A stretch of 64,000 nucleotides of DNA from an uncultured Chloroflexia bacterium (GTDB lineage Bacteria; Chloroflexota; Anaerolineae; JAAYZQ01), in NCBI GenBank assembly GCA_963749455.1, contig CAVVMX010000021.1, positions 393,354 to 457,353 on the forward strand, read 5' to 3'. Of this stretch, positions 2,111-55,849 are shown piece by piece. The translations under genes were made by a program, and so were the position numbers. A model generated the notes under the pieces. That model was given only the letters and a program-made list of their open reading frames with translations. It was not told the DNA's origin and searched no databases. How positions within the stretch are numbered: the first letter of the stretch is position 1; each line of letters starts with the position of its first letter.

Positions 2111-3594
2111 CTACACCGGTCGGACGGTGAGCTTGGGCAGTTCGTTCAGCCCGGCTGCCTTGGCATGCCTGACGGCAATGGCCTTCAGGGCGCGCACCAC
2201 ATCGTCGGGGATCTCTGGCAGCTCATAGGCCGCGATCAGCTCCTGAACCTTGCGGTGGGCACGGGCGTTGGTGTCCAGTGCGCCCTTGTCGAACCAGTTC
2301 TGGCGAAAGTCCCGGTCGATCACCTCCGTCGGGATATAGTCCTCCTGGCGGAAGTGGCGGCGGGTGTGCTTGTTCTTCAAAAAGTTGCCCTCGTGGCCCA
2401 CCTGGCGCATCACCTCCAGCGCCAGCGGCGTCTTCCGAGTCGTCCACGCCGCGCACCAGGCGCTTGGCCATGCCGACGATCTCGGCGTCGATCGCCAGCT
2501 TTTCCAGGCTGAAGCAGCTCTCAAAGTCCATCATGCCGGGACCGGACATCATGTTGACCCCCGCCAGCGCACCGAGGATGGCGCCCGAAGCGGTCTCCAG
2601 TCCGGTCTGGGCATCGACGATCTTGGTGTCGCTCATGCCCAGGTAGGCGTGAGTCGGCAGTCCGCCTGGCTTGATCGCCTTGCCGATCTGGGTGTAGGTG
2701 CAGTCGAGCATCATCGTCGCCATGGCGCCCATGGGAGTTGTGCCGGTGCGCATGTCAAACGACGCCGGCGACCCGCCCCACACGATCGGGCTGCCTGCCT
2801 TGGCCAGTTGGTGGATGGTCAGGCCGCTCAGGCACTCGGCGGCGTGCTGCACCGCCGAGCCGATCACCGTGGCCGGCCCGGTAGCGCCCATGAGCGGCAT
2901 CGACACCAGCTCGGCGGGCACGCCCGTCCGCGCCGCGTCGATCAGGTTGGCGCAGGTGATGTCGCTCCACAGCAGGGGCGGCGACGGGCAGACGTCAAAG
3001 ACGGCCCGCGGCTTGGCTGCCAACGCCGCCGCGCTCCCGGCCGAGGCTACCAGCAGCTCGTGCATAATCGGGAAGCTCTCGATGGCAAAGGTCCCGGTGA
3101 CGATCGGCTTACGGCCGTAGAGCAGAAGCAGGTACAGCCGGTACCAGTCGGCCATGCCTCTGTGGCACGTCGCCGCATACGATCGATGTGGCCAGGGCGT
3201 CGATCTGGGGCAGCATTTCAGCCAATCGGACGAAATTCTCGCAGTCGGCGGTCACCGGTGTTCGGGACTGGTTGGCGCCATAGTCGGCGATCTCGATGGC
3301 CGCCGATCCGGGGTCATAGTGGATGTCGTCGCCCCCATAGTGCACGGCCGGTTCACCCTCCAGGCTGTACAGGAAGAACGAGCCAGGTGCAGTGTCCACT
3401 GCCTTTTCGGCCAGGGAGCGCGGGATCTTGGCTACGCGTGTCGCCATGTCGACCGTGGCGCCCGCGTCGGCCAGCAGCTGCAGCGCCTCATCGTAATGGA
3501 CGCGCACGCCGGGATCCCATAGTAGCTCATACGCTTCGTCGATGACGCGTTGTACCGTCTCGCGCGACAAAAATTCCAGCTTGGGTCGGATCAT
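2111..3594 (-). CDS. MttB-superfamily (trimethylamine methyltransferase-like, non-pyrrolysine) quaternary-amine:corrinoid methyltransferase; 2 frameshifts
   Basis: Three colinear ORFs (3109..3594, 2223..3155, 2111..2524) together give a ~490 aa protein with MttB-family blocks (PVTADCENFVRLAEML..., GMSDTKIVDAQTGLE, MMSGPGMMDFE, C-terminal NELPKLTV). The pieces lie in three different frames, so the breaks are frameshifts and not an in-frame amber/Pyl codon. GAGGAGG RBS upstream of ATG 3594. Confidence 0.7.
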
Positions 3595-3862: not shown

Positions 3863-5051
3863 ATGCTACAACAAGCTCAAACGCTGAGCAACATACTGAT
3901 TGCCCTGCGCCGCGAGGTTCACCGCCATCCCGAGCTGGCTTTTCAGGAACACCGCACGGCTCAGCTGGTCGCCCGCCGGCTGGCCGAGCTGGGGATCGCC
4001 AGCCATACCGGTGTGGCCAAGACAGGAGTAGTGGCCGATCTGGTGCCGGCCGGAGTCTCTGGTCCTACCATCGCCCTGCGGGCCGATATGGATGCCTTGC
4101 CGATCCAGGAGGAGAACGAGGTCTCCTATGCCTCGCAGGTTCCTGGCGTGATGCACGCCTGCGGCCACGATGTCCACGTCGCGTGCCTGTTGGGTGCGGC
4201 CCAGCTCCTGGCCGAGCAAGCCGCTGCTGGGCGGCTGCCGGGGCGCGTCCGCTTCCTCTTCCAGCCGTCGGAGGAGGACTGGGACGACGAGGGGTTCAGC
4301 GGCGCAATGCGCATGGTGAACGAGGGCGCGATGGACGGCGTCGATGCCGTGGCCGGCCTCCATGTGTGGACCGACCTTCCGGTGGGCGTCCATTTCCACC
4401 CGCGTTGGCCCGATGAGCGCTCGTCCCGACAAGTTCAGTCTTGTGGTCAGGGGTCAGGAAGCCCACGGAGCCTTTCCCCATCGCGGCGTGGACGCCATTG
4501 TTCTGGCCGCACAGGTCATCAATGCCCTGCAGACGGTGGTGTCGCGCCGGCTCGATCCGACCCGCGGCAAGGTGCTGACCGTCGCAACCATCCAGGGTGG
4601 GACGAAGGAGAACATCCTGGCCGGTGAGGTGCGAATGACCGGGACGCTGCGCACCTTCGAGTCCGAGACCCGTGACCGTCTGATCGCCGAGATGGAGCGG
4701 GCCTGTGGGGTGGCACGGGCGTTGGGCGGTGACTTTGAGCTGACCGTCGTCCCGGGCTACGACCCGGTGATCAACGACCCGACCATGACCGAGCTTGTAC
4801 GCCGGGTCGGAGCCGATCTGCTGGGCGAGCAGGGCGTGCGCGAGGGAGCCTTGGAGATGGGCGGCGAGGATTTCAGCTATTTCGCTCAAAAGGCGCCCGG
4901 CTGCTTCTTCTGGCTCGGCGGCGCCATCCCTGGCGAGCCGCAGCGGCTGCACCATCACCCCCGTTTCGACGTCGACGAGCGCTGCTTGCCGCTCGGGGCG
5001 GCGTTGCTGGCCGAGATCGCGATGCGCTATCTGGGGGAGCACAACCGATGA
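3863..5051 (+). CDS. M20D-family amidohydrolase (N-acyl-amino-acid/hippurate hydrolase-like); one frameshift near 4400
   Basis: MHACGHDVH metal-binding motif, FLFQPSEE, and M20 dimerisation domain ([20 protein letters not shown]..., [12 protein letters not shown]). ORFs 3863..4627 and 4344..5051 are colinear. Confidence 0.7.
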
Positions 5052-7168: not shown

Positions 7169-7938
7169 TGAGCGAGCTGAGTTACAATCCAGCAGAGCTA
7201 TTGATCTGCACTGCCTCGCGGCTGATGGAGGACGGCACTACGGCCTTCATCGGCACCGGTATCCCCATGTTAGCTGCGGCGTTGGCCCAGCGGCGCCAGG
7301 CACCCAACCTGGTGCCGGTGTTTGAGTTCGGCGGCACGGGTGCCATCCTGGAGGACCTGCCGTTGGCCGTGGGTGAAGCCCGCACCTTTCATAAGGGCGT
7401 GTCCGCCTCGGGCATTACCGATGTCATGGAGACGGCACAGCGGGGCTTTATCGACTATGGCTTTCTTGGCGGCGCTCAGGTCGACCCCTACGGCAACCTG
7501 AACAGTACTATTATCGGTCCGCAGCATCACCCGCCCAAGGTGCGCCTGCCGGGCAGCGGCGGCGCCAACGACGTCGGCTCATTCTGTTGGCGGACGATCA
7601 TCATCATCCGTCACAGCAAGCGCAGCTTTGTACCCAAGGTCGATTTCCTCACCACTCCAGGCTATCTGACCGGCCCGGGGGCGCGCGAGGCGGCGGGCCT
7701 GCCGCCCGGCACCGGCCCACTGTATGTGGTCAGCAACCTGGCGTTGCTAGGCTTTGACGACGGGACGAAGCGCATGAAGCTGCTGTCCACCCAGCCGGGT
7801 GTGACCGTCGACCAGGTGGCAGCCGAGACCAGTTTTGAGCTGGTCATCCCGGACGACGTGGGTACTAATGCTCCACCTTCGGACGAAGAGCTGCGCATCC
7901 TGCGGGACGAAGTGGACCGCAACCGCTTCTATATCTAG
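7165..7938 (+). CDS. CoA-transferase family I, subunit B (GctB-like)
   Basis: MSELSYNPAELLICTASRLMEDGTTAFIGTGIP...; SGGANDVGSF; 4-nt overlap with subunit A. Confidence 0.65.
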   Translation: MMSELSYNPAELLICTASRLMEDGTTAFIGTGIPMLAAALAQRRQAPNLVPVFEFGGTGAILEDLPLAVGEARTFHKGVSASGITDVMETAQRGFIDYGFLGGAQVDPYGNLNSTIIGPQHHPPKVRLPGSGGANDVGSFCWRTIIIIRHSKRSFVPKVDFLTTPGYLTGPGAREAAGLPPGTGPLYVVSNLALLGFDDGTKRMKLLSTQPGVTVDQVAAETSFELVIPDDVGTNAPPSDEELRILRDEVDRNRFYI

Positions 7939-47637: not shown

Positions 47638-50054
47638 TCACCGCTCTGTCTTGACCCACCACTGCTGGCCGTCCGTAATCAGCTCGATAGTACCTACCTG
47701 GTCGGTGCGAAGGACGGTGGCTCCCAGTTGGGTCAGACGATCCAGGACGGCCGTCGCCGGATGGCCAAACCGGTTGCCGGCACCGGCTGAGACAACAGCA
47801 TAGGTGGGGTGCACGGCTGCCACAAAGCCGGCGCTCGACGAGCTGTTGCTGCCGTGGTGGGCCAGCTTGAGCACGTCGGCCGACAAGCGGCTGTTCGGAC
47901 CAGATCAACGAGCTCTCTGCCTCGGCCGCAATGTCCCCTGTGAGCAGGACGCTGGCTTGCTCCCAGGTCAGCCGCAGCACAACCGATTGATCGTTGGCAT
48001 CGGCTCGTGTGTCAGCCGCTGGGTCAGGCGTTGTGGCCGGATTGAGCACCGTCAGGACGGCTCCGTCACCCAGGTCGATCTTGACCCCAGCCTGGACGAT
48101 GCTGCGAGTCACCTTTCCCCTGTCCAGTTCCTTGCTGGCATTCTTCATAGATCGCCTGGCCCTCGGCACGGCCGTTGTCGAGCCACCCGCCCACCCGGTA
48201 GCGTCTCAGCACTTCCACCAGGCCGGTGATATGATCGGCGTCGGCATGAGTCATCACCACCAGGTCGATCGACCGATCCCAGAACGGCATCTCGCTGACC
48301 CAACCCTGACGTCAGGGCCGTGGGGCTGGGGCCGCCGTCGACCAGGATCTGCTGGCCGCGCGGGGTGGTGATGAGGGTGGCATCACCCTCGCCGACGTCC
48401 AGAAAGGCGATGTGCAGCCGGCCATCGGGCAGTTGCAGGACGGCCAGCCAGATGAGCGACCACTGTCACCGGAAGCAGCCCCAGCATGACCGCTGCCGAG
48501 CCGGCGGGGCAGGCGGGCCGCCAGCCAGTTCCAGAGACGGCGGTCGTACCCCTGGCTGTAGGCCCAAACTGCGGCCAGCAGCAGGCAGTAATACAGGGCC
48601 AGCCGGCTGGCCCTGTCCGGACTGATCTGAACGGAGGCCATCGGCCAGGTGGCCAGCCAACGCACAACGGCCGTGGTATAGGCCAGGCCAAGCCATGGGA
48701 TCCAGAAGATGAGCTGGGCAATCGGTTGAAGGAAAGGGAGGAGCCCGACGAGTGTTGCCACCCCGCCGGCGATGATGATGGCCGGCTGGGCCGGCAGGAT
48801 CAGCAGGTTGGCCAGAGGCGCCACCAGCGACAACTGTCCAAAGTGATAGACGATCAGCGGGCAGGGTCAGGATCTGTGCGGCCAGCGTGACGATCAGTAG
48901 GTCGTCCAGGTAGCGAACTGCCTTCTTGGCCCTTTCCTGAGGCAGGACGCGCGCCAATCCGCGCTCAAAAAGCCGGTCCAGCGCTGGGGAGAACAGGATC
49001 AGGCCCAGGGTGGCGGCAAAGCTGAGCTGAAAGCCGACGTCCCACAGTGAGAAGGGATTGATCGCAGTCAACAGCAGGCCCGAGGCGCACAACGACACAT
49101 AGGCCGTGGCGTGGCGGCCCAGGTACAGGGCCGTCAGGTATAGGCCGGCCATCAGTGCGGCGCGAGCCACGGCCGGCTCAGCGCCGACCAGCAGCACGTA
49201 CAACCCGACGCCGCCCAGGGTGAACCAATAGGCCCGGCGCTTGCCCAACAGCCGTCCACAAGTCCGGGAAAGCAGCGCGGCGATGATGGTCAGGTTGGCG
49301 CCGCTGATGACCAGGATATGGCTGGTGCCGGTTGCGTTGAACAGGTCGTAAAGGTCGCGGGGGATGCTGGCCCGGATGCCCAGGATGATGCCCTGCAGCA
49401 GCGACGCCTCGGGCTCGGGCACCAGGCGGGCGATGGCGGCTCGAGCCCGGTCCTTGACGGCACAGAAGGCTGCCTTGATCGGGCTGCCCTGGTCCTCTGC
49501 CAGGAGCTCGATGCGTGGCCGGCCGATGTAGGAGTAGATCCCCTGACGGGCCAAGTACGCCTCGTAGGAAAAGCCCTCCATCTCGGGCGGGGTCTCCAGC
49601 AGGCCAGACACTCGCAGCCGGTCGCCATAGGCATACTCTGGCAGACGAGGGGCGCGCACCAGTACAGTCCCATGGACCGGGTAGACCTGGCCGCCGACCT
49701 CGACCGATTCGGCGCTCGAGCCGCAGGTTGGTCCAGGTGTCGCGCACGTCGGGATAGCCAGACACGACGCCCTCGACGGTCAGCCATCCGCTGTCGTTAT
49801 AGTGCGCCGACAAAGGTCTGGTCGGCCCAGTTGGGCAGGGCCGCTTGATAGCGCAGGGCGCCGGCGAGCAGGGCCAGGGCGCAGACGCCGCTCAACCGCA
49901 TGGAGCGATCTCGCCGCCACAGGACCGCGGCGGCCAATGGTATGATGGACAGGATCAGCAGTGCGGCGGGTTCGACGCCGCTGGGCGCCAGCACATAGTG
50001 GGCCAAGGACAGGCCAGCCGCCCATGCAGCTGCAACCAAGACCAGGGGAGGCAT
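47638..50054 (-). CDS. comEC: ComEC/Rec2-family DNA internalisation competence protein with C-terminal metallo-beta-lactamase domain; many frameshifts
   Basis: N-terminal TMs, competence domain (TGTSHILVISGANLTIIAALL), MBL motif VVMTHADADHITGL, C-terminal LKLAHHGSNSSSS... in colinear pieces across ORFs 49797..50141, 48466..49659, 48312..48833, 48066..48290 and 47638..47886. Confidence 0.65.
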
Positions 50055-50145
50055 GAGTGGTACTCTTTGATAGGTGAGACCTGACGGGCTGTCGGAAGAA
50101 CCCCGCCCAAGTGGGAGAGGTGGCCCGTGTGGACCTGTCAAGGCT

Positions 50146-50843: not shown

Positions 50844-50999
50844 GCCTCAGGTCCGAGAGGGTCAGGACGTCGGACCAACAGATTATACCGACACCGGTGG
50901 GGAATGTCAAATCCAATAGCAGAAGGGTCTCTAGTCTTTAGGTTGGCTAACTGGAGAGAAAACAGCCGGCGCGAGGTCCCTGTCTGGCCCCCTACTCGA

Positions 51000-51389
51000 T
51001 CATGAACGGAGCTGCTCGTCAGCGGCATTCCACTCGGCGCGGCGCAGTCGGGCCAGGATCCGTGCGCATAGCTCGTTCAGAGAGGATGGCCACCGGATAT
51101 AGTCGTCGGCCCCCTGCCGCAGCCCTCGCACAGCGTCAGCCCGGTTGCGACTGGAGGAACACAGGATCAGAGGAACGCCCGATCTGGCCCGAATGTCGCG
51201 CAACAAGCTCCAATCCATCGGGTCTTCGACCTGGAGCAATATCAGGTCTGGTTGGAACGTGCCTAGAAGGGCCAGGCTGGACCTGGTTGCCGGAGCAACG
51301 TGCACGCCATAGTCCTGACCCGGAAGAAACGCTGCTACCTTGCGCGCCAGGTTGCCACGTCTTTCCAAGACCAGGATCCGGGTCGGCAC
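51000..51389 (-). CDS. stand-alone atypical receiver-domain protein (pseudo-receiver)
   Basis: CheY-like fold, but acidic pocket DD replaced (ILVLERRGNL) and the phospho-acceptor Asp position reads DLILLQVEDP (Gln). Confidence 0.5.
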   Translation of the reverse strand: MPTRILVLERRGNLARKVAAFLPGQDYGVHVAPATRSSLALLGTFQPDLILLQVEDPMDWSLLRDIRARSGVPLILCSSSRNRADAVRGLRQGADDYIRWPSSLNELCARILARLRRAEWNAADEQLRS

Positions 51390-51521
51390 GATCGCAGTCC
51401 CTTTCTCACATGACTTCTGGTTCGGGTGTCACATGGTTGCCCATGCCCACATCGCTTTCTGCGCCCTCAAGAAGCGGTTGGGCTCAACTGCACACTCTCT
51501 TGTATACCACGCAACGATTAT

Positions 51522-51554
51522 AGTCCGGCTTGAATTCGATTAGAATTCGGTTAG
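51522..51554. repeat. three tandem 11-bp direct repeats (GAATTCGATTA / GAATTCGGTTA / GAGTTCGACTG)
   Basis: Read directly from the sequence. Helical-turn periodicity in the divergent regulator/RiPP intergenic region. Confidence 0.5.
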
Positions 51555-51590
51555 AGTTCGACTGGCCAGCGGCGGCCGGGCTGTGCCAGA

Positions 51591-51630
51591 CTGTAACCGT
51601 TCTGTTACGCATCTCTAACCGGCCTGTAAC
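51591..51630 (+). promoter_or_regulatory. Pho-box-like array: four 7-bp direct repeats with 4-bp spacers (CTGTAAC-cgtt-CTGTTAC-gcat-CTCTAAC-cggc-CTGTAAC), then extended -10 TGgTACAAT 10 bp downstream
   Basis: Exact 11-bp periodicity. Resembles the PhoB binding-site architecture (CTGTCAT repeats replacing the -35, 10 bp upstream of -10). TACAAT at 51641-51646 with TG at 51638-51639. Confidence 0.45.
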
Positions 51631-51690
51631 GTGCGGGTGGTACAATCGCCTTGGTTGTGTGTGGGTACGGCAGCAGGCAGAGCGCGGGTT

Positions 51691-51719
51691 TTGACAGAAT
51701 CCTGTATCTGTGCTATTAT
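51691..51719 (+). promoter_or_regulatory. consensus sigma70 promoter (TTGACA, 17 bp, TATTAT) of the RiPP-like operon
   Basis: 33 bp upstream of ATG 51752. Confidence 0.5.
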
Positions 51720-51751: not shown

Positions 51752-52047
51752 ATGGAAGTCCTTTCCCGGCGCTACCGCAAGAGCCCCGATCTGGTCTTTC
51801 GACAGATAGCTGGTGAGTTTGTGCTGGTGCCGATCCGGCACGACGTGGCCGACCTGGAGGCGGTATACACCCTGGCGGGGTAGGCGCGCGCATCTGGGAG
51901 CTGCTGGATGGCGAGCGGGATGGCCATGCCGTCCTGGACCAGATCGTGCAAGAGTACGACGTCACCCCTGACGAGGCCCGGACCGATCTGGTCGAGTTTC
52001 TCGGCGAGCTGGAAGCGGTGCAGGGGATAGTGCCGGTAGAGGCCTGA
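51752..52047 (+). CDS. PqqD-family RiPP recognition element (peptide chaperone); one frameshift near 51880
   Basis: MEVLSRRYRKSPDLVFRQIAGEFVLVPIRHDVADLEAVYTLAG then VGARIWELLDGERDGHAVLDQIVQEYDVTPDEARTDLVEFLGELEAVQGIVPVEA* has the PqqD/RRE layout (beta strands, then LNxxgxxIWellDG helix). Stop TGA overlaps ATG of the rSAM gene. Confidence 0.6.
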
Positions 52048-52048
52048 C

Positions 52049-53168
52049 ATGGGTGACGGGCAGAGTACAAGAAGCAGGTCGGTGCGAGATTGGATCGACC
52101 GTATCGATCAGCGCACGGGAGATCATCGCGTGCCCTGGCTCATCTCCCTGGAGCTGACCGAGCGCTGCAACCTGCGCTGTGTGCACTGCTACGTCAACCG
52201 GCCGGCCGGCGACGACGAGGTCCGCCGGAAAGAGATGACCCTGGCCGAGTGGCAGGGGATCCTGGATCAGGTAGCCGATGCCGGCACGCTGTGGCTGCTG
52301 GTGACCGGCGGCGAGCCGCTCCTCCGGCCCGATTTTCCCGACTTCTACCGGTATGCCAAGGGCAAGGGGCTGCACGTTATCCTGTTTACCAACGGTACCC
52401 TGCTGACGCCGGAGCTGGCCGACCTGCTGGCCGAGTACCCACCGTGGGAGATCGAGATCACCCTGTACGGGGCCACCGCCGAGATCTACGAGCGGGTCAC
52501 CGGCGTGCCCGGTTCCTATGACCGGTGCCGGCGGGGGATTGACCTGCTGCTGGAGCGCGGCCTGGCCCTGAACCTGAAGACGATGGCCCTGACGCTGAAC
52601 GTGCACGAGCTGCCGGCCATGCAGCGCATGGCCGACGACCTGGGGGTGCGCTTTCGCTGGGATCCGGCAGTCCACTCGCGGCTGGACGGCGACCACCGGC
52701 CGCTGGCCTGCCGCCTGTCGCCGGAGGAGATCGTCGCCCTGGAGCGGCAGGACCCCAAGCGGATGCAGCAGTGGCAGGAGTACTGCGGGCGGCCTGGCTG
52801 TCGCCGATGAGGACCGGCTCTTTATGTGTGGGGCAGGGTTGGGCACTTTTCACCTGGATCCGTATGGCGGCCTCTATCCTTGCCTTACGGCCCGCTGGCT
52901 GCGTTATGACCTCCTGCGGGGTTCGGTTAGGAAGGCGCTGGGGGAGTTTCTTCCGGCCGTGCGTGCCCTGCCGGTTGCGCCCGACAGCACGTGCCGGAAG
53001 TGCGACCTGCGGATCATCTGCCAGAACTGCCCGGCCTGGGCATATCGCGAGATAGGCGACCCTGAGGCTCCTGAACCGTTCCGTTGCGAGTTGGGCCGTC
53101 TGCGACAGACTAATCTGGGCCTGACCGTGACGTCTGCCACGGGAAAGGCACAAGCGCAGTCATGCTAA
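52049..53168 (+). CDS. radical SAM / SPASM-domain peptide-modifying enzyme; one frameshift near 52810
   Basis: CNLRCVHC (Cx3Cx2C) radical SAM cluster motif, GGEPLL. C-terminal SPASM Cys clusters (CGAGLGTFHLDPYGGLYPC, CRKCDLRIICQNCPAW). Confidence 0.75.
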
Positions 53169-53198
53169 TATCAGATCGATTAAGGAGGGATTCACGTG

Positions 53199-53309
53199 AT
53201 GACAGAAAGCAAGAAAGCGTACCAGAAACCGACCTTGGAGCGGGTGGTGCTGATCCCGCAGGAGAATGTGCTGGGAGACTGCTACCACCTCCGGCCGCAG
53301 GCGACATGA
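53199..53309 (+). CDS. candidate RiPP precursor peptide (36 aa): MTESKKAYQKPTLERVVLIPQENVLGDCYHLRPQAT
   Basis: Strong AAGGAGGG RBS 6-9 nt upstream of GTG 53196/ATG 53199. Starts 31 nt after the rSAM stop. Charged leader plus C-terminal GDCYHLR core with a single Cys. Stop TGA overlaps ATG of the kinase-like gene. Confidence 0.45.
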   Translation: MTESKKAYQKPTLERVVLIPQENVLGDCYHLRPQAT

Positions 53310-54268
53310 AGCCAGTGCGGGCCACCCATCCCGTGTCCGACAGAGCATATCGAGCTGGCCGACGGCCCACGGCTGGCCGAAGCCGTAATCGGGTAGACCT
53401 TGTGTCGTTTTCTCTGGCTCGCATCGCCGGGCTGGACCTGTGCCTTCGGTGGGAGGCGGGATGTCCCTGGAAGGGATTTCCTCCTCAGTATGATCCCTTT
53501 CGCGTTTCGGATGGCGAAGGCGCCAATGTCGAGCTCACCATTCGCGTCCTGCCGGCGCCCTCCGGCGGGAATGAGGGGCCCGGGGGGGCGGGGACCGTGC
53601 CTTCAGGCCGGCCGACTTCTGGGCCGTGTTTCCTCGCAACGGAGGCTGGCGCTTTGTCAACGGGCCCATGGCAGCTGGCAAGTGGCAGCGGGCGTTGGCC
53701 TGGTCCCCGGGATCGGGGCAGGCGCATCTGTGGCTGGAGTCCAGCGTTCCCTCTCCTGATCCGCTGGGAGACTTGACCTTGCCGTTCTTCACGGCCCTGT
53801 TCGCCCATCACCACGGCCTCCTGCTCCACGCTGCGGCTGTGGAGGTAGACGGGCGGGCGTGGGTCTTTGCCGGGCCGTCGGGCACGGGCAAGAGCCATTG
53901 GTCCCGGCAGTGGCAGGACCGTGGCATGACCGTGCTCGACGAGGACCGTGATCGTGCTGCGTCAGTTGGATGGGCAAGTGTGGGCCTTTGGCACGCCGTG
54001 GCACGCCGAGCCCCGCCTCTGCTCGCCGCGCGGAGCGCCGGTGGAGCGGATCTTTTTCCTGCGGCAGGCCGAGACGGACACGGTGCAGGAGGTCCGGCAG
54101 GCGGCGGGGACCGCGCTGCTCATCCGCTCCTCGCAGTTGCCTCTCTGGGATCCAGAAGGGATGCAGACGGTCCTCGACGTCGCCGGGCAGGCGGCGACCC
54201 AGGCGCGGCTCTTTGGCCTTGGCCGCATGACTGACGATGGTCTGCTCGATCGCGTGATGGCGCTGTAG
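53306..54268 (+). CDS. HprK-related kinase-like P-loop protein (serine-kinase fold), about 2-3 frameshifts
   Basis: P-loop AGPSGTGKSHWS followed by GTPWHAE. Overall HPr kinase C-terminal-domain-like layout, distributed over ORFs 53162..53776, 53626..54234 and 53948..54268. Confidence 0.45.
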
Positions 54269-54485: not shown

Positions 54486-55849
54486 TTGGACGATTTCGAG
54501 GGAGACTTGCTGACCTTCCCGGCAGGGTTCGCCTGGGGTGTTGCTACTGCTGCCTACCAGATCGAGGGGGCGTGGAACGAAGGCGGCCGCGGCCTGTCGA
54601 TTTGGGACACCTTCTGCCGCCGGCCGGGCAAGGTGCACAACGGCGACACCGGCGATGTGGCCGATGATCACTATCACCGCTGGGCTGAGGACGTGGCCAT
54701 CATGGCCGAGCTGGGCGTGAACGCCTATCGCTTTTCGATCTCCTGGCCGCGCGTCCTGCCCGATGGCAAGAGTGTCATCAACCTGGCGGGCCTCGATTTC
54801 TACGACCGGTTGGTGGAGGCGCTGCTGGCCAGAGGCATTACCCCCTTTGTCACGCTCTACCACTGGGACCTGCCCCAGGCGCTTCAGGATCAGGTGGGGG
54901 CTGGGCCAGCCGCGACACGGCCCGCTATTTTGCCGACTATGCCCACCTTGTCGGCAGGCGCCTCGGTGACCGGGTGAAGCACTGGATCACCCACAACGAG
55001 CCGTTCGTCGTCGTGTTCCTTGGGCATCAGACGGGACGCACGCACCGGGCGTGCAGGACCAGGCCGTCGCCTCCGCCGTTCGCCATCACCTGCTGCTGTC
55101 GCACGGCTACGCTGTGGGCGCGCTGCGCGACGCAGTCCAGGATGCACAGGTCGGCATCACGCTGGACCTCTACCCTGTCCATCCTGCCTCGGATTCCGAG
55201 GCAGGATCAGGAAGCCGCCAGGCGATTTGACGGCATGCACAACCGCATCTATCTCGACCCGGTCCTGCGCGGCAGCTATCCTGACGACATGGTCGCTCTC
55301 TTGGGCCCGCACTTTCCCCAGATTCAGCCGGGGGACATGGAGGTGATCTCGACCCCGATCGATTTCCTGGGAGTGAACTACTACAGCCGCTCGGTCGTCA
55401 AGCACGATCCCGATTCGTCCTTTATCCAGATGGCGTGGGTGCGCCCGCAAGGCAGCGACTATTCGGAGATGTGGGAGATCTACCCGCCCGGGATCTATGA
55501 GATGCTGACCCGCCTCCAGGCAGACTACCAGCTCAAGAAGATCTATATCACAGAGAACGGCATTCCTGTGCCTGACGTGCTGACCGCAGACGGGCAGGTG
55601 CACGACCAACAGCGGATCAGGTACATCCGCGATCACCTGGCCCAGCTCCATCGGGCCATCGCCGATGGCGTTCCGCTGCGCGGCTACTTTGCCTGGTCCA
55701 TGCTGGACAATTTCGAGTGGGCGCACGGCTACAAGATGCGTTTTGGATTGGTGTACGTGGATTATGCCACGCAAGTGCGGACGATCAAGGACAGCGGCCG
55801 GTGGTATGCGCGCGTCGCTCGGGAGAATGCCATACGGGCCCGGCGGTAG
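54486..55849 (+). CDS. glycoside hydrolase family 1 beta-glucosidase; about 3 frameshifts
   Basis: TTG start after AGGAGA RBS. GH1 blocks ([20 protein letters not shown], acid/base region TLNEP-like ITHNEPFVV, nucleophile ITENG). Confidence 0.75.

Follow-up and report, generated by a model that had tools for sequence, protein, structure and literature searches.

The Locus and Its Probable Control Region

The 64-kb stretch of DNA analysed here, referred to below as the window, belongs to an uncultured bacterium of the phylum Chloroflexota. Within it, a 362-bp intergenic region separates two divergent groups of genes. On one side lie the genes of a receiver-only protein (the pseudo-receiver) and of an OmpR/PhoB-family response regulator, both on the minus strand, and on the other side a peptide-modification operon begins with a PqqD-like gene. 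The intergenic region holds two arrays of short direct repeats in mirror-image arrangement, each followed by an extended −10 element, and a further promoter, P2, that stands immediately before the operon. Judged from its sequence and conservation, this is probably a bidirectional control region for the adjacent response regulator. The mirrored arrays most likely allow this neighbouring two-component regulator to switch on the peptide-modification operon together with the genes on the other side. The features are collected in Table 1.

Table 1. Features of the proposed control region and of the flanking genes (positions in the window; L numbers designate other loci; PWM, position weight matrix; RRE, RiPP recognition element, where RiPP stands for ribosomally synthesized and post-translationally modified peptide)
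Feature	Position	Strand	Basis and remarks
Right array, four 7-bp units, 11-bp phasing	51591..51630	+	sequence reading, chance test, conservation, PWM
P1 extended −10, TGgTACAAT	51638..51646	+	7 nt past last right-array unit, without −35
P2, TTGACA-17-TGcTATTAT	51691..51719	+	near-consensus, 11/12 plus TG
Left array, right-array motif inverted, four units	51517..51556	−	repeat finder, minus-strand reading, PWM, conservation
Leftward extended −10, TGgTATACA on minus strand	51501..51509	−	7 nt past fourth left unit
Pseudo-receiver, 129 aa, without DNA-binding domain	51000..51389	−	domain search, alignment A3
Promoter of the regulator gene, TTGACA-17-TATAAT, 12/12	50882..50910	−	directly upstream of regulator; also in L001, L138
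OmpR/PhoB-family response regulator, receiver plus winged helix	50146..50843	−	PF00072 plus PF00486 over three frames
PqqD-like (RRE) protein, first gene of the operon	51752..52047	+	PF05402 in orthologue; frameshift near 51880
Radical SAM/SPASM enzyme	52049..53168	+	domain search; frameshift near 52810–52834
Small Cys-containing peptide gene, candidate precursor	53196..53306	+	alignment A2; conserved leader KxYQKPxLERVVLxPxENVL
ScmC-like / HprK-related protein, frameshifted	53393..54268	+	PF27840

Two Mirrored Arrays and Three Predicted Promoters

The right array is composed of the units CTGTAAC (51591–51597), CTGTTAC (51602–51608), CTCTAAC (51613–51619) and CTGTAAC (51624–51630), which are separated by 4-nt spacers. 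An earlier sequence-only reading of this DNA had reported the array with exactly these coordinates and sequences. It had also described an extended −10 element without a −35 element behind the array, and direct reading of the sequence bears this out. The TG of P1 lies one base 5′ of the TAnnnT hexamer, which is a conserved arrangement, and 10 nt separate the end of the final unit from the hexamer. The position of a −35 element (51618–51623, ACCGGC) has zero likeness to TTGACA. The geometry attributed to PhoB-type class-II promoters, with 7 + 4 units, 11-bp phasing and a distance of 10 bp between the final unit and an extended −10, is thus present as that reading had claimed. A possible fifth unit upstream of 51591 (GCTGTGC at 51580) was rejected, being out of register and without conservation.

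On both strands of the 64 kb, the motif CTSTWAC-N4-CTSTWAC with at most one mismatch occurs at three overlapping positions, all of which fall in the right array. Since 0.01 matches are expected per window and three were reached in 0 of 100 shuffles, a chance origin of the array is excluded. A position weight matrix (PWM) was trained solely on right arrays from seven loci other than the window, and its scores were added up over four units spaced by 11 bp. The right array of the window came out first with 53.6 bits; the background, taken over 127,914 positions, was −67 ± 14. The evidence supports the view that the repeats represent a real and conserved operator for regulators of the OmpR/PhoB family, and the right array is a putative binding site for two head-to-tail regulator dimers.

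The same motif is found in inverted orientation on the left. On the minus strand, the left array reads CTCTAAC cgaa TTCTAAT cgaa TTCAAGC cgga CTATAAT and is followed by cgttgcg and TGgTATACA. This leftward arrangement is the mirror image of the right one, with four units phased at 11 bp and, after a linker of 7 nt, an extended −10 element without a −35. The repeat finder showed that CGGTTAGAG (51548–51556) is the exact reverse complement of CTCTAACCG (51613–51621), and Tandem Repeats Finder listed an upstream repeat at 51532–51561 with a period of 11 and 2.7 copies. In the PWM search, the inverted left array (51513–51556, minus strand) was the next independent four-unit site with 18.8 bits, and scores elsewhere in the window were −3.3 or lower. 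The sequence-only reading had listed three tandem 11-bp repeats in this place. The repeats do exist, but they are not a separate element, as they are four inverted units of the motif of the right array. They make up the mirror-image array of a second, leftward promoter, predicted to be regulator-dependent, that had been overlooked. This promoter faces the minus-strand genes of the pseudo-receiver and the regulator. The TATAAT inside the fourth left unit (CTATAAT) was considered as a −10 element and dismissed, as relatives read CTCCAAT there.

A second strong promoter downstream of P1 had also been proposed, and P2 is indeed present. It consists of TTGACA (51691–51696), a 17-nt spacer, TG (51711–51712) and TATTAT (51714–51719), and it stands 32 nt before the start codon of the PqqD-like gene. 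Its extended −10 element (TGcTATTAT) is conserved. In 9 of 10 loci with the peptide-modification cassette, array-less ones included, TTGACA-17-TGnTAnnnT stands 30–44 nt before the start codon. P1 and P2 are about 45 bp apart in the window and are separated by 55–250 bp of unconserved sequence in other loci. In view of the short gap and the unconserved sequence, a precursor peptide or a small RNA between the two promoters was rejected. Additionally, an Rfam search of the intergenic region at a permissive threshold returned only a meaningless 14.6-bit microRNA match, so no known RNA element was recognized in it. As a separate observation, P1 and P2 of L001 are set apart by an insertion of roughly 190 bp with repeated GTCATTCTGAGC motifs (4340–4430 of that locus), which is not found in the window.

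Conservation and Linkage to the Regulator Gene

Syntenic contigs were reached through homologues of the radical-SAM protein, and further loci came from a pattern scan of metagenomes. Alignment A1 contains seven loci (the window, L008, L001, L005, L007, L128 and L147), whose radical-SAM proteins are 76–87% identical. Units 1 and 4 of the right array (CTGTAAC) are invariant, and units 2 and 3 have one variable position each. The element TGrTAyrAT stands at an invariant distance from the array, although the 7-nt linker between them varies. On the left side, TTGAA..GATTAGAAT..G.TAGAG and TTATAyCA (TGrTATAA on the minus strand) are conserved, and the TTATAyCA of the leftward −10, read on the plus strand, is invariant. 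The variable parts are the 4-nt spacers, the 7-nt linkers (gtgcggg, gcgcccc, atgtgtc, atgtggc), the 34–38-bp centre and the outer flanks. Such a pattern, with cores and −10 elements kept and spacers drifting, is characteristic of protein-binding sites combined with promoter elements; in a microsatellite, the opposite would be expected. Conservation in orthologous intergenic regions had been posed as a check on which the whole idea could fail, and the array is conserved in these seven loci.

The presence of the array tracks the regulator gene among cassette loci, and the adjacent regulator is the best candidate for the protein that binds the repeats, as had been suggested. All six regulator-linked cassette loci possess the array (the window with L139, L008, L001, L005, L007 and L138). 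No array was found in the 7–11 kb of four regulator-less cassette lineages (L002–L004, L148/L149, L150 and L151), where the best four-unit PWM score was −1 bit or lower. P2 is retained in the regulator-less L002, L148 and L150 and was not detected in L151. Because the array and the regulator co-occur while the regulator-less lineages mostly keep only P2, the array-plus-regulator module seems to have been added to a cassette that would otherwise be run from P2 alone.

The left side varies in its genes. L138 is without a pseudo-receiver gene and likewise without the left array. In L001 and L005, the gene of an SdrD_B-domain surface protein is located between the left promoter and the pseudo-receiver gene, so the leftward promoter faces a surface protein gene there. 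Another kind of repeat was noticed in L150, a Chloroflexia metagenome-assembled genome (MAG). Upstream of P2 in this regulator-less cassette, at about 3240–3275, the direct repeat CTGCTGACGTT occurs twice and is followed by TGtGCTAGAAT. It may be a site for another regulator.

The Regulator and Its Relation to Known Systems

Domain searches confirmed that the divergent neighbours are an OmpR-type regulator and an atypical receiver protein. The regulator reaches no NCBIfam equivalog level, as it scores 218.6 bits with RpaB (cut-off 330), 209.8 with MtrA (300) and 199.1 with YycF/WalR NF040534 (340). The PhoB models gave 188.8 bits against 296.2 (TIGR02154), 174.6 against 270 (NF053854) and 139.3 against 471 (NF007546). 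Among solved structures, its DNA-binding domain scores 71 bits with VicR (2hwv), 70 with WalR (2zxj), 66 with YycF (2d1v) and 43 with PhoB (1gxp). The consensus of the array units is YTSTWAC, and its core TGTWAC is the WalR/RpaB-type half-site, not CTGTCAT, with which CTGTAAC agrees at 5 of 7 positions. The consensus of WalR is TGTWAH-N5-TGTWAH (PMC4168254). Units 1 and 2 (TGTAAC-cgttc-TGTTAC) match it exactly, and units 3 and 4 (TCTAAC-cggcc-TGTAAC) have one mismatch, of a kind that is also seen in footprinted VicR sites (PMC4168254).

With PhoB-dependent promoters, the arrays share direct repeats of 7 conserved and 4 variable bp in 11-bp phasing, often as two boxes (four units), and a last unit 10 bp before the −10 element that replaces the −35, so that class-II activation is predicted here. 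In the pho promoters of Escherichia coli, the last unit likewise lies 10 bp upstream of the −10, in place of the −35. The PHO box of this species has a CTGTCAT core in direct-repeat units of 7 + 4 bp (PMC4415409). The arrays described here differ in their TGTWAC core (against TGTCAT), in the TG-extended −10 and in the divergent mirror-image pair. Apart from the 7 + 4 geometry, the marks of a Pho regulon are missing, as there is neither a PhoB orthologue nor a linked PhoR, and no array was located at pst/pho genes in roughly 25 array-bearing loci examined; the window has no further site. The phosphate control of the operon that the sequence-only reading had suggested does not agree with the missed PhoB cut-offs, the WalR-like domain, the TGTWAC half-site and the lack of pst/pho targets among these loci.

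The boxes of WalR/VicR/YycF in Firmicutes have an identical half-site and 11-bp spacing, these proteins possess the closest DNA-binding domain among solved structures, and the targets of similar arrays elsewhere are cell-surface or envelope genes. The binding-site match expected of a member of the WalR/VicR regulon is therefore present. The regulator remains below the YycF cut-off (199 against 340), however, and an orthologue accompanied by a walK-type kinase and by the walHIJ or wal operon context was not found. Moreover, the present sites have four units instead of two, stand at the −35 position instead of upstream of a complete promoter, and occur in another phylum. RpaB of cyanobacteria is the best NCBIfam match of the regulator. 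Its HLR1 element is (G/T)TTACA(T/A)(T/A) (PMC6525291), a direct repeat that corresponds to the reverse complement of TGTAAC. HLR1, in contrast, has two units of 8 + 2 bp (10-bp phasing), the regulator misses the cut-off for RpaB, and the targets here are not photosynthesis genes.

Three properties of a class-II operator were found in the sequence, namely, a nearby regulator with receiver and Trans_reg_C domains, direct-repeat cores with variable spacers, and a site that replaces the −35 at a fixed distance from the −10. In summary, the geometry is PhoB-like, the predicted specificity and the protein are WalR/RpaB/MtrA-like, and the regulator belongs to none of these orthologous groups.

Genes of the Locus

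The regulator gene has ComEC and the pseudo-receiver as neighbours. Its frame breaks in the window can be compared with the independent contig L139, which is 97% identical over 1.7 kb and differs by two 1-nt indels exactly at these breaks. There the regulator is intact at 231 aa, and intact orthologues of 230–231 aa are known from L001 and L139. Further indel-broken genes occur across the window between 47000 and 56000 (e.g., at about 50273, 50579, 51880 and 52810–52834), ComEC (48466–50141) and the GH1 gene (54486–55849) included. Intact versions of indel-broken window genes are found in contig L139 and in the cluster mate P0121. The single-base indels in this part of the window are thus probably assembly errors rather than signs of pseudogenes.

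In the pseudo-receiver, the acidic pair DD is replaced by ER, the phospho-acceptor D by Q and the conserved K by W, and these substitutions are kept in 4 loci. The protein retains a GADDY...P...EL.ARI.A.LRR segment, and given both features, the 129-aa receiver-only protein was classified as a pseudo-receiver. The statement that the window encodes no histidine kinase was borne out. Neither tblastn with a kinase query nor a hidden Markov model built from five HisKA/HATPase_c domains and run on all six-frame segments of the 64 kb gave a match at E ≤ 1.

The operon is a RiPP-like cassette related to the SynChlorMet models (SCM; TIGR04248–04251 and PF27840 for ScmC), well below their cut-offs. It resembles SynChlorMet in its PqqD-like, radical SAM/SPASM and ScmC-like (HprK-related) proteins. 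It differs in combining just one radical-SAM gene with a 60-aa Cys peptide and in scoring below the equivalog cut-offs, with 29 against 100 for ScmD, 71 against 400 for ScmF and 39.5 against 125 for ScmC. Membership by the ScmC, ScmD and ScmE/F equivalogs is thus not reached, and the similarity is at the family level only (PF27840, PF05402, PF04055). A literature search on SynChlorMet turned up nothing. An intact radical-SAM protein of 373 aa falls in the same 90% cluster as the truncated copy of the window, and an indel has probably shortened the gene of the small Cys peptide in the window.

Elsewhere in the window, the Rfam family PYLIS_3 (pyrrolysine insertion sequence, mttB) matches 2537–2636 on the minus strand with 39 bits (gathering threshold 38). 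The match lies inside the open reading frame (ORF) 2223–3155 (−), a fragment of an MttB-family methyltransferase, and the adjoining 1294–2073 (−) is the gene of a corrinoid (B12-binding) protein.

Similar Arrays at Other Loci

Species-representative genomes were scanned for four degenerate units. Most of the matches listed were perfect 11-bp microsatellites from a wide range of phyla, and the matches were filtered for non-tandem matches with an extended −10 at +7. Among the matches listed, only four Chloroflexota MAGs (L011, L017, L061 and L069) had non-tandem arrays with TGnTAnnnT exactly 7 nt downstream. The pattern extended by the extended −10 retrieved 20 metagenome loci.

A second family of arrays reads CTCTAAC catt TTCTAAC catt TTCTTAC aggg CTCTAAC, followed by 7 nt and TGyTAyAAT. 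It is located upstream of a DUF7507/DUF11 surface protein of 1,390–1,478 aa, in a cluster that also encodes a kinase, a hybrid kinase and a 230-aa regulator 48% identical to that of the window. Four units, 7 nt and TGnTAnnnT occur beside this 48%-identical regulator in L130, L143, L135, L011 and L069. In L130, an array at about 1249–1292 (−) reads TTCTAAC caaa TTCTAAC ttgt TTCTTAC gatt TCCTAAC, 7 nt, TGgTATACT. This second array of the locus precedes the gene of a second OmpR-type regulator (ORF 420–1232, −) in the cluster of the giant surface protein. The L017 array is found upstream of the gene of a PKD-domain protein. Two unrelated contigs, L061 (6760–6799, −) and L136 (81–132, +), have arrays before gene clusters of a Bac_transf polysaccharide-priming sugar transferase.

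Two other occurrences of the motif were recorded. A metagenome contig of 62% GC, L137, has a seven-unit array at 7825–7911 (GTTGTTAAC three times, then CTGTAAC four times), followed by 7 nt and TGCTATACT. In a Prolixibacteraceae MAG (Bacteroidota), CTGTAAC arrays of 11-bp period are followed by an inverted copy (...CTGTAACCTTTCTGTAAC..GTTACAGAAAGGTTACAGATGAGTTACAG) in a multi-copy element on nine contigs (L019, L021, L023, L034, L055, L062, L067, L081 and L084; L100 and L107 were also listed). The latter looks like a mobile or repeat element that is unrelated to the arrays of the window.

Proposed Mechanism and Alternative Explanations

As a whole, the observations are best explained by two divergent activator-dependent promoters that are served by the adjacent regulator, with P2 as a basal promoter, and we consider this explanation likely to be correct. 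Two phosphorylated regulator dimers would bind each array head-to-tail. The promoter-proximal protomer would take the −35 position and recruit RNA polymerase to the extended −10 in the class-II manner, like PhoB at pho promoters. P2 would provide basal expression of the operon, and P1 would add signal-dependent induction. Synthesis of the regulator would depend on the consensus promoter of its gene, and its activation on an unlinked kinase. The leftward promoter would close a feedback loop by way of the pseudo-receiver, and transcription from it might extend into the regulator gene. The binding, whether it activates or represses, where transcription starts and what is sensed are inferred; the stimulus is more likely to be a matter of the cell surface or envelope than of phosphate.

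Several points speak against this explanation. In the present assembly, the regulator gene is split over three frames by two 1-nt indels. The leftward element TGgTATACA is without the final T of TAnnnT, and the usual final T is missing from the leftward −10 in most loci (TATACA, TATAAC); for this reason, the leftward promoter is the weaker prediction. L017 and L061 have similar arrays and no regulator gene within 8 kb, so a regulator encoded elsewhere could be the binder. Finally, P2 is apparently strong enough alone, which makes the contribution of P1 uncertain.

It is unlikely that a different, perhaps global WalR/MtrA-like regulator encoded elsewhere binds the arrays and that the adjacency of the local regulator gene to them is incidental or reflects co-regulation. 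The like arrays of L017, L061 and L136, which have no regulator gene nearby and point to a surface/envelope regulon with multiple targets, would be accommodated in this way. The distribution of the array, which is found in six of six regulator-linked cassette loci and in none of the four regulator-less lineages, would not, and the second array family also shares its cluster with a related regulator. The arrays might otherwise be operators for repression or insulation, at which, for example, the bound regulator would prevent read-through or transcription in the divergent direction and leave the operon to P2. P2 is near-consensus in 9 of 10 cassette loci, and OmpR-family proteins, WalR and RpaB included, can repress where their sites overlap a promoter (PMC6525291, PMC4168254). 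Nevertheless, such a role is improbable. The extended −10 is kept at a fixed distance of 7 nt on both sides despite the varying linker, and selection on an operator alone would not maintain it. The array is also 45–250 bp upstream of P2 at a variable distance and therefore cannot occlude it.

A true Pho box, with the adjacent regulator as the PhoB/PhoP of the organism and an operon induced by phosphate limitation, is very improbable. The resemblance to E. coli pho promoters in the 7 + 4 geometry, in the 10-bp distance to a −10 without a −35 and in five of seven core positions is real, but all three PhoB models are missed and the DNA-binding domain is closer to VicR/WalR than to PhoB (71 against 43 bits). 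No PhoR-like kinase and no second site exist in the 64 kb, and the genes behind the arrays in the loci examined are surface proteins, sugar transferases, regulators and this cassette, never pst/pho genes. As perfect 11-bp tandem repeats with CTGTAAC/CTCTAAC are common in many phyla among the matches listed, a non-functional microsatellite or a relic of a mobile element was also considered. It is hardly credible, since the cores are conserved while the spacers differ, and syntenic loci agree in the position, orientation and −10 distance of the arrays. An origin from a mobile element or from terminal repeats was rejected on account of the conserved position and synteny and of the distance of only 34–38 bp between the arrays.

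Significance

The element itself is undescribed, but it belongs to a well-known kind, the direct-repeat operators of the OmpR/PhoB family at class-II promoters. A specialist would find its mirror-image layout, the predicted self-induction of the pseudo-receiver and the reappearance of the design before surface or envelope genes across Chloroflexota neat but not surprising. A more general lesson concerns the Pho-box geometry, which alone is not diagnostic of phosphate control, because the same geometry serves a regulator with a WalR-type DNA-binding domain and half-site.

Two linked proposals go further, and jointly they are tentative, with a modest chance of being right. One is a Chloroflexota-wide, WalR-like surface/envelope regulon, in which a WalR-like clade of OmpR-family regulators would act through a stereotyped promoter, an extended −10 placed 7 nt behind four TGTWAC units. 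Its members would be giant DUF11/PKD/SdrD_B surface proteins, polysaccharide-priming sugar transferases and the radical-SAM peptide cassette. The other is that the pseudo-receiver would be a phosphorylation-dead partner (D to Q, K to W) induced by the regulator itself. If this is true, it would heterodimerize with the regulator through its retained α4-β5-α5 face and form a built-in, phosphorylation-independent feedback element.

To our knowledge, next to no information exists on how transcription is controlled in uncultured Chloroflexota. With the PWM, the regulon could be charted in these genomes, and activation or overexpression of the adjacent regulator would be the obvious lever for expressing the peptide cassette. 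The motif, the two predicted regulator-dependent promoters and the basal promoter, each of which has comparative support, together form a model of how a cryptic, RiPP-like operon for a radical-SAM peptide may be regulated, and this model can be tested directly.

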